64,000 bases of DNA from positions 20,522,001 through 20,586,000 of the forward strand of contig OX597841.1 in assembly GCA_951406725.2 (NCBI GenBank), written 5' to 3'. Source of the stretch: Octopus vulgaris. Taxonomy: Eukaryota. Below the pieces are notes generated by a model. It worked only from the letters and a program-made list of their open reading frames with translations. It did not search any database and had not been told where the DNA came from. A program made the position numbers and the translations under genes. Below, in pieces: positions 6,413-62,275 of the stretch. Every line of letters starts with the position of its first letter. The stretch's first letter is position 1.

Positions 6413-7015
6413 ATATTACATTTCTAAATATCTCAGAGAGATATAAGCAGTAGTGGTACAATAGAGTAGTTGTATACTGTCAACTTAATGTGGCAGTCCC
6501 ATGAAGGGAATCACACCACCGCTATTTAGCCCTAGGAAGCAGCAACGCTTCCTGTCAGCCTCGACACATTTCCTGTGTCCTTATGTTTACAAAGGGGAGA
6601 CAAGCACCTCCACCCAGCTAAGCCTGCCACCAGAGACATGTTTCAGAGTCTTTGCTCCTCCTCAGTCTGGAGTAGCATGACCTGCTAGTTGGGGATGCCT
6701 GTCTAGCCTTTGTAAACATATAAGAATTCTAGTGAAATAAATCCACTGATTACAAAAATAGAAATATTACATTTCTAAATATCTTAGAGATATATACGCA
6801 GTAGGAGTGCGATAGAGTAGTTGTATACTGTCAACTTAATGTGACAGTCCTATGAAGGGTGGAGGTGCTTGTCTCCCCCTTGTAAACATAAGGACACAGG
6901 AAATGTGTCAAGGCTGACAGGAAGCGTTTATGCTTCCTAGGGATAAATAGCAGTGGTGTGATTCCCTTTATGGGACTGTCACGTTAAGTTGACGGTATAC
7001 CAGTATACAACTACT
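6413..7015 (-). mobile_element. Retrozyme-like element, ~351-nt monomer plus inverted partial copy
   Basis: Direct repeat 6416 vs 6767 (period 351); inverted arm 6858-7015; one HHR; no ORF; (TA)n flanks. Confidence 0.8.
6630..6670 (-). ncRNA. Minimal type I hammerhead ribozyme
   Basis: ccaga CTGAGGA ggagcaaagactct GAAAC at GTC tctgg; canonical core, palindromic stem III ACATGT. Confidence 0.88.
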
Positions 7016-7516
7016 ATATATATATATATATATATATATATATATATGAAAGAAGGTTTGAAATGCTATTTTAAAAAATGTCTATTCACTTGGCCAGTTT
7101 CACTTTTTTAGAAGAAGATTGTCAAAAGTAAAATGTAAAAGCTGTGTTGTGTTAAGTATTGGCTGTCGCAAAATATTACAATACATATGTACATTCTTTG
7201 ATAATAATAAGAAAATGTTAAAAACAGTTTCCAGGAAAAATCTTGAGAAACTATTAAAAAGTTCGTTAAAAATATTAGGATTTCATTAAAAATCATGTTT
7301 GTTTGGAAGTATCTATATATATATATATATATACAAAGAAAATTATAAGTTCAAAAAGGTCATATTTTGGTGGTATATAATACACGGAAGGAGATGTATT
7401 TAGGATATATCTATATCTATGTATATATATATATATATATATATATATATGCATATGTGTATACATACATATATATATATATATATATATATATATATAT
7501 ATATGTATGTATGTAT

Positions 7517-7735
7517 ATTCTTTTACTCTTACTTGTTTCAGTCATTTGACTGTGGCCATGCTGAAGCACTACCTTTAGTAGAGCAACTCGTGTCCGGGAC
7601 TTATTCTTTGTGAGCCTAGTACTTATTTTATCGGTTTCTTTTTTCTGAACCGCTAAATTACGGGGACGTAAACACATCAGCATCGGTTGTCAAGCGATAT
7701 TGGGGGGACAAATACAGACACACAAACACACACAC
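7517..7735 (-). mobile_element. SINE family A, 3' fragment
   Basis: Reverse complement of the 3' half of the 39846-40250 SINE. Confidence 0.8.
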
Positions 7736-7863
7736 ATATATATCTATATATATAAAACTCAACTTGTGTGTCTGTGTGTGTATCTGTGTACACACACACA
7801 CACACATATATATATATATATGTATACATATTTATATATATATATATGTATATATTTATCTAT

Positions 7864-9039
7864 CTATCCGGTCAGTCGAAGTCGACTCCCGCTTACTCCA
7901 TGGATCAGTGTCCTCCAATCAGTTATATCCTGGGCCGCTTCTTTCAGACTGGCCAAGTCCATTCCGTCATCACTCTTGATGGTGTCAACCCAGCGGGTCC
8001 TTGGTCGGCCTCTTCCTCTCTTGCCACTGACCATTCCGAGCATGATGTCCTTCTCCAGGGATTTTCTCCTGATAATATGACCAAAATATGCCAATCTATG
8101 CTTAGTGATCCTAGCTTCTAGCGACATTTTTGGCCTGATCTGCTTAAGAACTTCTCCATTGGTGAGCCTCGCTGTCCATGGAATCCGTAAAAGTCTTCTC
8201 CAACACCAAAGCTCAAATGCATTAATTCTCTTCTGGTCAGCTTTCTTTAGTGTCCAGGTCTCGCATCCATATGTTGCTATTGGGAAGACAATTGCATTCA
8301 CCAAACTGCATTTGGTAGCGAGTCTGATGTCTCTATTCTTCCAGACCCTGCTCATGCTGACCATTGCCTCTCTGCCTAGTACTATCTGCCGTCTTATTTC
8401 TGGAGTGCAGTTACCATCTCGATTTATTTTGGAGCCAAGGAAGATGAAACCATCAACCACTTCGATCTCTTCATTATCGATCTTGATGCTGATGTTTGTT
8501 GTGGCTGCTGTTGACATGATCTTCGTTTTCTTAACATTGAGATACAGCCCGAATTTCTCACTCTCTTTCTTGACCAGCAGGACAAGATCCTCCAGATCCT
8601 TACCACTCTCCGCCAGCAGGATTGTATCATCTGCATAGCGAAGGTTATTAATATTTCTTCCTCCAATCCTCACTCCAATGCTGCTATCCTCCAGGCCTGC
8701 ATTCCTCATCACCTTTTCAGCGTACATGTTAAAAGCTGCTGGTGACAGGATGCAACCTTGCTGAGTGCCTTTTCCAATCTCAAACCAATCAGTGTCGCCA
8801 TATGGTGTCCGTACTGTAGCCTCTTGGTTTTGATAGAGTGATCTAATAAGGTGTAAAGGTGTTCCCATATCCTCCAGACATTTCCATAACTTGTCATGGT
8901 CAATGCTGTCAAAGGCTTTGGAGTAATCGATGAAACACATGTACAGCTTCTTTTGGTATTCTCTTGCCTTTTCCATAATCCACCGTAGGTTGGCGATGTG
9001 ATCGCAGGTGCCTCTTCCCTTTCTGAAACCAGCTTGCAC
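7864..9039 (-). pseudogene. RTE-clade LINE reverse transcriptase (5'-truncated; homology extends to ~9300)
   Basis: QAGFRKGRGT, FIDYSKAFD, QGCILSP, LRYADD, LNVKKTK, YGCETW, FELWCWRR, RGRPRTRW; (GATA)n tail. Confidence 0.95.
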
Positions 9040-59301: not shown

Positions 59302-59329
59302 TTGTTAAATTATATATCCAGGATATAAA

Positions 59330-60700
59330 AGTGGTGATGAGATATTCGAAGCTTTTTATTATCAAGAATTTTCAGAAGTTCCCCGTTCAATACTTATATA
59401 AAATGTTTAAATTTAGTTAAAAAATATGATGAAGATTTCATCACCTATGCTACGATTGTTAACAGAGAGTGTGAAAATTTCAAATTAAATGAATTAGGGT
59501 GGGGGCAATAAAAAAATATGCCTTTGCCAACAAACATTACAATGTAGCAAGCATTTTGGGAGCTTGCAAATTACTACCAGGTATGCATACCGAATATGCA
59601 CGATTTAAGAGAACCCCTGAATAACTTGTTAAAAAAAGACGTTAAGTAGAACTGGTCAGTCAAATGCCAAAAAGTATTTGAAGAGATTAAAAATGTCTTA
59701 ACTTCGAAATTGACGTTATCATATTTTGGCCTGACTTTAGAAATAGTAGTGGCAACAGATGCTAGTGAAAGTGGTATTGGAGCTGTGGTTTTACACAAAT
59801 GGTAGCCTGAAAGCAGCAGCTCCTGTTTCGTGTTCATTATTGCCGGCTGAGAAAAGTTACAGTCAAATAGAAAAAGAGGCATTAAATTTATATATGGAAG
59901 AGGGTTCTGTCTGCAGACAGACCACCACCCATTATTGTCGTCGATCTATGGATAAAAAAAGGGTATCCTCACACATACAACCAACAGATTGTAGTGCTGG
60001 GGAACAATCCTACTGAATTACAATATCAAAATGGAATATTTGCCATCGAAAATATTGGGACATGCAGATGATTTGACAAGTTTAATACCAAAATACAGTG
60101 AACCCCTAGAAGACGCAGCGATAGTGGCGTTAAAAGCCTAAAATGAAATAAAAATATTGTGCATAAATTGCCTGTGACACTGGAGAAAATAAAAATTAAG
60201 GCAGAGACGGATGAGTTTATCATAAAAATGAAAAATATAGCGAGATCAGAAGCAAATAAAAAATACGTGTAGCTCGACGTAACAAAGTCTCAAATTTGTG
60301 TTCGATATGTGATAATGTGCTTATGTATGCACAGAGGGTCATAATGTCTACCTCACTACAAGGTCGGATGTTAAAGGAATTCCACACTGGACATCCAGGA
60401 ATTTCTAGAATGAAGTCACTTATGAGGAGTTATGTTTACTGGCCAAAAATGGATTTGGATATTGAGAAGTTGGTAAATCCTGCAGAGATTGAGCTCTTAC
60501 AGAGAAATCAGCACCAATAAAATTTCAACCTTGGCCCAAGACCAATATTCCAAGGTCCAGACTACACATAGACTTCACAGGACCGTTAAACCGATCGTGT
60601 TATCTAATAGTGGCAAATAACTTTACTAAATCGCCAAAAATGTGTAAATGTAGAAAACCAACATCCACAGTAAAAGTGAAATTTCTACACAAACTTTTTC
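59330..60700 (+). pseudogene. Decayed Gypsy pol (RT tail, RNase H, integrase)
   Basis: PLNNLLKKD, VATDASESGIGAV, YSQIEKEAL, TDH, HTGHPGISRMKSLMRSYVYWP, RLHIDFTGP. Confidence 0.9.
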
Positions 60701-61726
60701 TAGGTATGGTGTTAAGGTTAGTATTTGGTGTTAGGGTTACGGCTAAGCTTAGTATTTGGCAGGTATGGTGTTATTGTAAATATTTACCAAATTCTTATCC
60801 AGTCATAATTTTGTTCATCAGTAACCAACCTTTGTGTGAATGGGACAGGACTAGCCAGAAACTTTGTTTTACAAAAGTACTTCTTACATAACTTGCTGTC
60901 AATTCATTGGATTAATCCCAACAAAATACTTCTTCCGAAGTAATAAAAACGTTTTAGAAAAATTTGAGGGGAAATGTTTTCCGAAGCTGCGGGGAAAGTG
61001 TTTCGGAAAATTCACACGATCCGATTTTTTCCCTCGTAACTTTCAGGAAAAAGGATATCTTTTAATGAATTTTTGCAGAAACATCTTTGAAATATTTGAA
61101 AATGGGGGTGGATAGTGAAATTTCCGAGGGTTTCACCCCACCCCACCCCTGAACCCAAAAAAGGGTTTTGTAGCATATTAGGAGGTCACCGGAATTCAGT
61201 CAATGAAAAAAATTTCCAATGATTCCTGGATATGGGGGGGGTCCGAATCCCCCCACCACACACACAACAAAAATAAAGGGGTCAGAGTACTTGATTCCAT
61301 GCAAAAAATCTGAGTTTTCTATTTTTTCTTAGTGAAAATCGTGCAGAGGGTGAAATTTCTGAGGCTTCCACCTCACCCCACCCCATTTTCCGGACTCTAA
61401 AAAGGGTTTTGTAGCATACTAGGAAGTCACTGAAATTCACTCAATGAAAAAAAAAATTTCCAATGATTCTGGGTGTGGGGGGGCTCTTTTTCTGAACAAA
61501 AATAAGGAGTTTGTAGTATATTAGGAGGTCAGGGTACTTGATTCCACGCAAAAAATCTGAGATTTTTTTTTTCTTAGTGAAAATCGTGCAGGTGAAAGGA
61601 TCAAAATTTACCCTTTCATCTTGGTAATTATTTGATGGCAACGATTCGAGAGGAAGGTATAACTTGGCTGCCTCTATAAAGAACTTGTGCAACAGACTTT
61701 CTTCAGGTTGAGAAATTATAAATCAA

Positions 61727-62275
61727 AATTAGAAATATTGAATTTCTAAATGTCTCAGAGCGATATAGTGGTCGTATACTGTCAACTCAATGTGACAGTC
61801 CCGTAAAGGAATTATACTACCGCCATTTAGCCCTGGGAAACATCGACGTTTCCTGTTGGCTTTGACACATTTTCTGTGTCCTTATATTTGCAAAGGGGAG
61901 ACAATCACCCTCGCCAGCTGGGACTAAGCACCTGAAGACATATGTTTCTGAGTCTATTGCTCGTCGTCAGTTCAGGGTTGTCAGTCTCGCTCGCTGAGAT
62001 GACTGCAACCTCTTCGCAAATATATCATATTTTCAGTAAAATGTATTTACTGATCACCGAAATTAGAAATATTGAATTTCTAAATGTCTCAGAAACATAT
62101 GTCTTCAGGTGCTTAGTCCCAGCTGGCGAGGGTGATTGTCTCCCCTTTGCAAATATAAGGACACAGAAAATGTGTCAAAGCCAACAGGAGACATCGATGT
62201 TTCCCAGGGCTAAATGGCAGTGGTGTGATTCCCTTACGGGACTGTCACATTGAGTTGACAGTATACGACCACTAT
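61727..62275 (-). mobile_element. Retrozyme-like element, 334-nt monomer plus inverted arm, 14-bp TSD
   Basis: Direct repeat 61729/62063; inverted arm 62089-62275; TSD aaattataaatcaa at 61713-61726 and 62276-62289. Confidence 0.87.
61931..61976 (-). ncRNA. Minimal type I hammerhead ribozyme
   Basis: cctgaa CTGACGA cgagcaatagactca GAAAC atat GTC ttcagg; 6-bp stem I; stem III ACATATGT. Confidence 0.9.

Follow-up and report, generated by a model that had tools for sequence, protein, structure and literature searches.

The 64-kb stretch of octopus DNA analysed here (the window) contains four related non-coding insertions, at 6413–7019, 12166–12621, 56197–56720, and 61729–62276. They raise the questions of what kind of element they are, which enzyme copies them, and whether the RNA that is copied is a circle. 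The mobilisation of retrozymes by enzymes of Penelope-like elements (PLEs), and via a circle, has so far been argued from co-occurrence and homology, whereas the octopus family displays the published fingerprint of a PLE enzyme directly in its insertions.

The Window Copies and Their Family

An earlier note on this DNA had described three insertions and a decayed fourth as related and non-coding, with a long stem under the hammerhead and with an inverted partial arm at the end of each copy. The present analysis agrees on all of these points (the fold of the stem has z = -7.1) and adds a fifth copy that had been missed, a 100-nt fragment at 22835–22935. The features are collected in Table 1.

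Table 1. Features of the retrozyme copies in the window (positions of the whole stretch)
Feature	Position	Strand	Remarks
Copy A, long arm	6413–6859	-	full 351-nt monomer followed by 96 nt of another; sense RNA on the minus strand; the left end, at the tail site, is where the cDNA started
Copy A, inverted arm	6857–7019	+	unit positions 208 to 54; outer end is the second (tail-less) start site
Copy A, type I hammerhead	6629–6671	-	core CUGAGGA 6665–6659; helix III palindrome ACAUGU; predicted cut after GUC, between 6635 and 6634
Copy A, long rod stem with hammerhead as cap	6575–6722	-	fold z = -7.07
Copy B (361-nt subfamily), left arm	12166–12346	-	unit positions 1–181, with tail
Copy B, right arm	12346–12621	+	unit positions 344 to 62; hammerhead remnant, cut site would fall at 12449/12450
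Fifth short copy, B-type	22835–22935	-	unit positions 1 to about 100
Copy C (354-nt subfamily), tail-less arm	56197–56505	-	unit positions 54–354, then 1–23
Copy C, type I hammerhead	56359–56403	-	core CUGAUGA at 56397; helix III palindrome ACUGCAGU; predicted cut between 56365 and 56364
Copy C, inverted arm with tail	56504–56720	+	unit positions 217 to 1
Copy D, target-site duplication, 14 nt	left 61713–61726, right 62276–62289		
Copy D (354-nt subfamily), long arm	61729–62096	-	one monomer + about 34 nt
Copy D, type I hammerhead	61931–61976	-	core CUGACGA at 61970; helix III palindrome ACAUAUGU; predicted cut between 61937 and 61936
Copy D, inverted tail-less arm	62088–62276	+	unit positions 244 to 56

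The window copies represent four subfamilies, with monomers of 351 (A), 361 (B), 354 (C), and 354 nt (D), which are 54–73% identical to one another. Each subfamily yields about 2,600–3,600 search candidates, and a rough estimate of the genome-wide copy number is tens of thousands. The unit falls within the 150–450 bp typical of non-LTR retrozymes and is non-coding, the longest ATG frame being 50–73 aa across four natural monomers, and its RNA is self-paired with z = -7.07 for A and -3.75 for B (100 shuffles each). The periods of 351 and 334 nt noted before are present, but 334 and about 336 nt are not monomer sizes. They result from private deletions, of 20 nt in copy D (hence the 334-nt period) and of 15 nt in copy C (leaving 339 nt), while the family monomers span 351–361 nt. 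Similarly, the copies at 6.4 kb, which sits within (TA)n, and at 61.7 kb do overrun their own start, but those at 56 and 12 kb do not: the former passes the unit junction by 23 nt with a long arm of 309 nt, i.e., less than one unit, and the latter is also shorter than one unit.

The Hammerhead

A type I hammerhead descriptor has three matches in the window, on the minus strand, with cores at 6665, 56397, and 61970; 200 shuffles had 0.035 matches on average. With Rfam, neither the whole window nor three short stretches showed a hammerhead match. In all four subfamilies the RNA strand has a type I hammerhead, whose stems covary and whose helix III is palindromic. The pairing of stem I is 0.69–1.0 per position within families, and the Watson–Crick pairing of its two arms is 0.62–0.87 within families vs 0.15–0.64 between them. 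Helix III is palindromic in 90–100% of 139 matches, in four different sequences, and the cut triplet is GUC in 134 of the 139. The presence of one hammerhead per unit was correctly recognised previously, but its description as minimal was not correct: helix III is short and palindromic, stem I is extended and bulged, and the predicted fold is nearer the canonical animal type I form. As to the decayed fourth copy, it is this copy alone that is broken, by a 7-nt deletion, while subfamily B keeps a core of the U3-A8 variant.

Insertion Anatomy and the Copying Enzyme

The anatomy was studied in 150 distinct elements out of 170 loci, a sample biased to long copies. In this collection, 201 of 212 arms begin at one of two sites, unit positions 1 and 50–62. 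The sites lie about 50–60 nt apart, some 170 and 225 nt downstream of the predicted cut, and 52 of the 62 two-armed elements pair one start site of each kind. With an internal query, which is unable to force a start, 28 of 30 rows begin at the two sites anyway. The tail, 50–60 nt long, is found on one arm only; partial tandems are common, and inverted 5'-truncated arms are present. Target duplications of 9–15 nt flank 25 of the 150 elements (control, 1/200), and non-simple terminal duplications of at least 9 nt occur in 19/62 two-armed and 6/88 one-armed elements, as compared to 1/200 mismatched flank pairs. Judged from the listed flanks, the insertions lie in AT-rich DNA and microsatellites.

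The two fixed sites rule out a random permutation of start points. The earlier note took the copies to be permuted, which is wrong, and its main argument for a circular RNA falls with it; a circle is plausible on other grounds.

The purified Poseidon PLE protein of Anolis initiates internally at two adjacent sites in vitro and cuts and extends both strands at AT-rich targets (Frangieh et al. 2024, PMC11167929). Because of the two fixed starts, the tail on one arm, the 9–15-nt duplications, and the AT-rich sites, it is likely that a Penelope-like protein with reverse transcriptase and GIY-YIG parts copies the octopus unit in trans, and the same features support the previous proposal of a retrozyme-like unit mobilised by a PLE reverse transcriptase. 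One could instead regard the unit, which is short, non-coding, dispersed, and accompanied by target duplications, as an ordinary SINE or satellite-derived repeat in which the hammerhead is incidental and which is moved by a LINE or by DNA-level recombination. LINEs are indeed plentiful in the genome. However, the unit has neither a poly(A) nor a simple-repeat tail of its own, LINEs do not show two starts or arms joined head to head, and the hammerhead shows covariation and matches the descriptor far above chance, which makes such an origin very improbable. Judged by its sequence features, the family is a non-LTR retrozyme, i.e., a non-autonomous PLE.

The cis-acting signal is here reduced to 350 nt and available in four naturally diverged versions, so that the role of the hammerhead in PLE transposition can be tested with the existing in vitro assay.

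Relation to Coding PLEs

Every structural mark described above is that of PLE termini, and of 57 retrozyme families in Xenopus, 24 have matches among known TEs, which are almost exclusively PLE termini. The units could therefore derive from a coding PLE family, as its solo or truncated pseudo-LTRs, rather than form an independent element. Intact families with frames of 717, 781, and 1312 aa are among the PLEs of the octopus genome. A coding partner was sought in this genome with two PLE proteins of the window and the Pfam GIY-YIG domain, and in 11 longer stretches. In the 90 loci thus obtained and the 11 longer stretches, no coding PLE has a unit at its 3' end; the sampled coding PLEs, from three groups in a genome with many PLE families, have different termini and different hammerheads, and the four unit matches at their loci are nested insertions. 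Likewise, an RT/GIY-YIG frame directly flanks the unit in none of the 150 elements and in none of 6 copies from an unselected 600 kb.

The copies themselves also argue against the pseudo-LTR origin. Beyond unit position 351–354 they go back to position 1 and not into other sequence, and 61 direct self-repeats at unit distance occur in 90 loci. Among 88 one-armed inner flanks only one pair is alike, and this is a LINE insertion. A PLE fragment lies within 1.5 kb in 13 of 150 loci. Two of these fragments are upstream and in the same sense; they come from different families, and a microsatellite lies between them and a truncated unit. On reading, the PLE fragments next to five copies proved to be nested or adjacent insertions. 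The derivation from pseudo-LTRs is thus unlikely, and in no locus examined is a copy merely the pseudo-LTR of a coding PLE.

The RNA Template

Arms stop within 5 nt of the cut in 1 of 43 cases, with 2.85 expected. As the cDNA does not stop at the cut, the templates were not cut linear RNAs but either religated circles or uncut multimers. A ribozyme that is under selection, together with the absence of a stop at the cut, would most simply point to religated RNA, and related animal retrozymes yield circles in vivo (PMC7229834). Tandem repeats share 69 of 81 minor alleles with the main arm, vs 19 of 146 where the main arm has the major allele, and variants specific to the first or second repeat are absent from the repeats compared. 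The sharing of variants within a locus can equally stem from later gene conversion or local duplication. On this evidence we lean mildly toward a template that would be a ribozyme-cut, religated circle, copied in trans by the PLE enzyme.

In the cycle that we propose for such a circle, transcription of the loci with at least two ribozymes, which are a minority, would provide the starting RNA. Two hammerheads would pair via the palindromic helix III and excise a monomer, the ends of which would be kept together by the long rod and closed by a host ligase. The PLE protein would then bind the hairpin cluster opposite the ribozyme and nick both strands of AT-rich DNA, and cDNA synthesis would begin internally, one strand using the tail site and the other the tail-less one. 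The cDNAs would pass the old cut site, and at times their own start, before joining head to head. Two same-strand cut sites are found in only 10 of the 150 elements of the sample, biased as it is to long copies, with at most four per element. No window copy has two such sites, and release of a monomer by double cleavage is therefore impossible for each of them; most copies, including all those in the window, would be dead ends.

The same element and the same enzyme could also operate on uncut linear read-through RNA from a few multi-unit loci. The hammerhead would then be retained as a protein-binding fold or act at another step, and the longer-than-unit copies would come from multimers and template jumps. 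With Poseidon in vitro, the hammerhead is dispensable, the protein works mainly on unprocessed RNA, and none of the reads ends at the cut site (PMC11167929). Since initiation is internal, an uncut linear multimer would yield the same anatomy as a circle, and the absence of a stop at the cut fits uncut RNA equally. Arrays of 2.6 to about 4 units are present, and there are mosaic insertions, with at least two discordant markers in 2 of 14 tandem segments and in 9 of 22 inverted ones, which cannot be obtained from one circle. On the other hand, the core, the GUC, and the dimer palindrome are kept via compensatory changes, which a binding fold does not need. The best 40 matches to a 2.6-unit query include no long arrays, and the first- and second-position variants that should accumulate under linear-multimer inheritance were not seen. 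We consider the uncut template quite possible, though less probable than the circle.

In a first sample the inverted arms appeared to derive from a second RNA, an explanation that was abandoned when a larger sample showed that their markers are mostly common to the partner arm. They share 33/49 markers, less often than tandems, which share 38/41 (p = 0.004, with markers that are non-independent; p = 0.14 by segment). Three runs presumed to be RNA have 329, 49, and 32 contigs that match the family, in some cases as parts of long host-like contigs. The depth drops near the cut site in these presumed RNA contigs, but it does so in a likely DNA run too.

Comparison with Known Systems

The family itself is new, but the 'undescribed system' of the earlier note is not: the retrozyme class, the size range (350–390 bp in mussel), the circular RNA, and the PLE link are already in print (PMC7229834, bioRxiv 10.64898/2026.07.22.740005, PMC4209133). 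The closest relatives are the non-LTR retrozymes of Cervera and de la Pena (2020, PMC7229834), with units of 350–390 bp in mussel, 331/353 bp in axolotl, and 220–245 bp in coral. The octopus units resemble these in size, in the lack of an ORF, in having one type I hammerhead per unit with a weak palindromic helix III, in the strongly self-paired RNA, in target duplications longer than 4 bp, and in the presence of PLEs in the genome. In contrast to their tandem arrays, the octopus copies are mostly dispersed and about one unit long or less, with an explicit PLE anatomy (two starts, tail, and inverted arm). The octopus family further comprises four subfamilies, down to 54% identity, of which one has a U3-A8 core, and it is known here from its sequence, whereas the circles of the published retrozymes have been seen in vivo.

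Li, Clavereau, and Pollet (bioRxiv 10.64898/2026.07.22.740005) described animal retrozymes as non-autonomous PLE derivatives. Their grounds are co-occurrence and homology to pLTRs, seen in 31 vertebrates, 3 insects, and a coral, and the mechanism was left open. We arrive at the same mobilising enzyme, though from the anatomy of the insertions, and likewise find dispersed monomers; the sampled loci contained no pLTR parent. With Poseidon and other PLEs (Craig et al. 2021, PMC8557442; Arkhipova et al. 2013, PMC3846280) the octopus unit shares two internal start sites, an optional tail, partial tandems, the inverted 5' arm, AT-rich targets, a hammerhead upstream of the start sites, and target duplications (8–10 bp in PLEs). 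It differs in having no coding frame, in its tail of 50–60 nt vs 30–40 nt, and in the distances of about 170 and 225 nt between the cut and the start sites.

A LINE beside the Ribozyme

A LINE-only query yielded 30 loci, and in 22 of them a 1.65-kb LINE with ORF1 only adjoins a retrozyme unit, 19–30 nt away from the core of the hammerhead. The hosts belong to four lineages. Full-length copies measure 1.62–1.69 kb and have ORF1 only; no ORF2 was found in them. The LINE–retrozyme junction was considered as proof of linear templates and dismissed, since full-length cases show the remaining unit behind the LINE, so that a 2-kb circle is possible too.

These observations could be combined into a three-tier chain. 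A coding PLE would copy the 350-nt circular ribozyme RNA from its two fixed starts; the ORF1-only LINE would home 19–30 nt from the core in the four lineages, and be co-transcribed with its host, whose ribozyme would trim the LINE at its 3' end; and the PLE enzyme would also carry it as a 2-kb composite. We put this chain forward tentatively and regard it as rather doubtful. If true, the retrozyme would be a minimal natural template for the RNA structure that the PLE protein reads and would show why PLEs retain the hammerhead.

While the system itself is no new kind, a LINE targeting the flank of a ribozyme is an unusual addition. Target-specific LINEs of the Tx1 clade are recognised by having more than 20% of their copies in one target sequence (PMC4494074), a share that the octopus LINE exceeds (22/30). 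As for Tx1L in Tx1D and Tx1-Mar in Mariner-N4 (PMC4494074), a LINE-like element occupies one spot in another mobile element. Here, unlike in those cases, the target is a ribozyme-bearing retrozyme, and the LINE copies have ORF1 only, where membership of the Tx1 clade would call for an ORF2 with an APE endonuclease and a Tx1-type RT. As in Tx1-clade LINEs (PMC4494074), the duplications are 13–20 nt long, and the insertions are occasionally in tandem.

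The Unit and Its Hammerhead

The four insertions of the earlier note are all present in the window sequence (see the table). When used as queries against the genome (2.8 Gb, 227 contigs, best 40 matches scored per query), copies A, B, C, and D yield 3194, 2667, 3576, and 2643 candidates, respectively, and each retrieves its own subfamily, with identities of 86–96% among the best 40. The subfamilies are 54–73% identical to each other, their copies diverge by 3.5–5% from the commonest letters, and the longest ATG frame in their units is at most 73 aa. The periods are 351 (A), 361 (B), 354 (C), and 354 nt (D). 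The units of 334 and about 336 nt proposed earlier are thus not family sizes; the window copies with units of 334 and 339 nt have privately lost 20 and 15 nt, respectively. Six further copies were found in 600 kb of unselected DNA, and the density is roughly 10 per Mb, corresponding to some tens of thousands of copies genome-wide.

Features of the window
Feature	Position	Strand	Remarks
Copy A	6413-7019
Copy B	12166-12621
Copy C	56197-56720
Copy D	61729-62276
Fifth copy, subfamily B	22835-22935		short
Type I hammerhead match	6665	-
Type I hammerhead match	56397	-
Type I hammerhead match	61970	-
PLE (Penelope-like element), 5'-truncated	4084-4782	-	C-terminal GIY-YIG-like domain; relatives L031-L060, L344
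Same PLE	3141-3480
PLE	40300-44000	-	RT, zinc-finger linker, GIY-YIG; one stop; relatives L061-L090, L343
Hammerhead-like motif of another family	40402	-
RT-bearing LINE fragment	7864-9378	-	Pfam RVT_1
Transposase-like frames	18920-20769	+	presumably Tc1/mariner type
46-nt tandem repeat	56859-57272

The hammerhead reported for these insertions is confirmed by a type I descriptor (core, stems I and II, and one helix III pair), which matches three sites in the window and nowhere else, against an average of 0.035 in shuffled windows. All three matches are on the minus strand. The long arms (an arm being one strand's copy in an insertion) are therefore minus-sense as RNA, with the cDNA starting at their left ends. 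Rfam recognizes no hammerhead in the whole window or in three short stretches. The unit folds into a long rod capped by the ribozyme, followed by several hairpins (z = -7.07 for copy A). Of 139 distinct descriptor matches, 134 have GUC as their cut triplet, and stems I and II vary in sequence between subfamilies while their pairing is kept within each. Loop 2 reads CAAAGA, CAAAUA, CAAUAGA, or UCAAUA and, together with the stem I bulge, resembles the canonical type I ribozyme of Schistosoma. Helix III is palindromic in 90–100% of the matches (ACUAGU, ACAUGU, ACAUAUGU, ACUGCAGU). The calculations give no fold for a single helix III and a pairing of -6 to -12.5 kcal/mol for two copies, which is the arrangement of the dimer model (PMC4209133). 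The core of subfamily B is UUGAUAA in 11 of 17 matches, a U3-A8 covariation that the same paper already describes.

Insertion Ends and the Copying Enzyme

The ends were analyzed in 150 distinct elements from 170 loci, collected as best-scoring matches to six A, C, and D queries and hence biased toward long or little-changed copies. Instead of the varied permutation points suggested earlier, the arms begin in two zones, at unit positions 1–14 (109 arms) and 45–61 (92), with 11 elsewhere; with an internal query, 28 of 30 matches begin at one of the two sites. The 62 two-armed elements comprise 52 with one arm of each kind, 6 with one tailed arm (the tail being the stretch between the two start sites) and one arm that starts elsewhere, 3 with two tails, and 1 with neither. 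Of these 62, 19 carry terminal duplications that are not simple sequence, as do 6 of 88 one-armed elements (control, 1/200); that of copy D is 14 nt long.

The purified protein of Poseidon, a PLE of Anolis, initiates internally at two adjacent sites, whose separating stretch is the PLE tail, and extends both strands at AT-rich cuts (PMC11167929). The two start sites and the arms on both strands of the unit match this behavior, and the unit also shares with PLEs their partial tandems, inverted arms, and tails (PMC8557442, PMC3846280). On the basis of this anatomy, we infer that the copying enzyme belongs to the PLE reverse transcriptases. The two start zones, twin arms, tails, and terminal duplications thus support the PLE-mobilized retrozyme of the earlier note. 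Its "undescribed system", however, has precedents, since publications, among them a 2026 preprint (bioRxiv 10.64898/2026.07.22.740005), describe retrozymes as a class, their circular RNA, and their link to PLEs. The literature covered, mostly open papers and, for retrozymes, their main texts, and including partial texts of PMC8967140 and PMC6155905, contains no account of this unit family, of cephalopod retrozymes, or of a retrozyme targeted by a LINE.

We have also considered that the unit is simply the pseudo-LTR of a coding PLE, the case named earlier as refuting. Three groups of coding PLEs, with 30 loci sampled per group, and 11 longer stretches show termini of their own, several of which carry different hammerheads. 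In none of the 90 loci and 11 stretches is the unit a terminus, its matches there being nested insertions. A PLE fragment lies within 1.5 kb of the unit in 13 of the 150 loci, none of them positioned as a terminus. In the loci covered so far, then, the unit is not a pseudo-LTR; no coding partner was found among the three groups.

Circle or Uncut Multimer

Downstream of the ribozyme cut, cDNAs start at distances of about 170 and 225 nt, and 1 of 43 arms stops within 5 nt of it (2.85 expected). The cDNAs pass the cut, and therefore the template is either uncut or religated. In 24 of 29 tandem and 15 of 19 inverted comparisons, repeats of one insertion resemble each other more closely than the median pair does, and linked markers are shared within insertions (tandem, 69/81 vs 19/146; inverted, 40/57 vs 15/171); position-specific variants between repeats were sought and none was found. 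This similarity fits repeated copying of one template, but some segments are mosaics (2/14 tandem, 9/22 inverted), and part of the sharing could come from later conversion. At least two same-strand cut sites occur in 10 of 150 elements and in none of the window copies.

The template would be a religated circle of the ribozyme-cut RNA, a reading to which we lean slightly because the catalytic core is under selection and circles are known for coral, mussel, and axolotl retrozymes (PMC7229834); for PLEs, such a model dates from 2014 (PMC4209133). Against the circle, Poseidon works without cleavage in vitro (PMC11167929), and an uncut linear multimer is a real, if less probable, alternative.

A LINE-like Element beside the Hammerhead

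Two unit copies share, past unit position 288, the sequence of a LINE-like element, with 262 candidates in the genome (loci L352-L421, e.g., L386:650-2400, L407:1265-3189, L370). Among 14 copies that have both ends, 13 measure 1.62–1.69 kb and one 2.47 kb; the 5' end is lacking in 6 of 20. The element is ORF1-only, with a single frame of about 460 aa and an AATAAA end, and runs in the same sense as the RNA of the unit. Its frame matches a CCHC knuckle weakly, below the Pfam cutoff, and has CCHC and RNA-binding look-alikes. With a LINE-only query, the unit lies directly at the 3' end in 22 of 30 loci, the junction being 28–30 nt from the core motif in 17 and 19–22 nt in 5; the other loci comprise 1 with the remaining part of a C unit behind the element, 2 second tandem copies, and 5 elsewhere. 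The remainder of the unit, with a duplication, follows the LINE 5' end in 13 of 20.

The hosts belong to four lineages (A, D, C, and an intermediate one). Since the junctions differ, as do the LINE and host trees, compared informally, the element appears to have inserted beside the unit repeatedly. Twin arms of the PLE type are present in some composites, and others are truncated inside the LINE without unit remainder, so the composite was itself copied. A mobile-element target is common to this element and the LINEs already known for such a preference (PMC4494074).

Other Hammerheads and PLEs

The genome is rich in hammerhead-like motifs, with about 20 from at least six other families in 664 kb surveyed. 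At G000:C23:42842945-42843741, after a C copy, a C-unit piece with the hammerhead core is repeated about 16 times in tandem with a period of 50 nt. The 5'-truncated PLE of the window represents a high-copy family that is very young (22275 candidates, intact frames of 717 aa). The pseudo-LTR of this family carries a hammerhead-like motif of its own (core CCGAAGA), and the family has two alternative ends. The PLE at 40300-44000 appears Neptune-like, judged by its linker, and its young relatives have frames of 826–1312 aa and an optional 54-nt tail. In a third family (L341, L342), the 781-aa frame (Pfam RVT_1, GIY-YIG) stands between a second open frame upstream, of 360–480 aa, and a repetitive 3' UTR, and the descriptor detects no hammerhead in this family. 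Finally, a PLE family with a U3-A8 hammerhead variant (L003, L134, L348:6200) immediately follows a retrozyme copy on its downstream side, across a (TA)n run, at two loci, which probably reflects a shared target preference.
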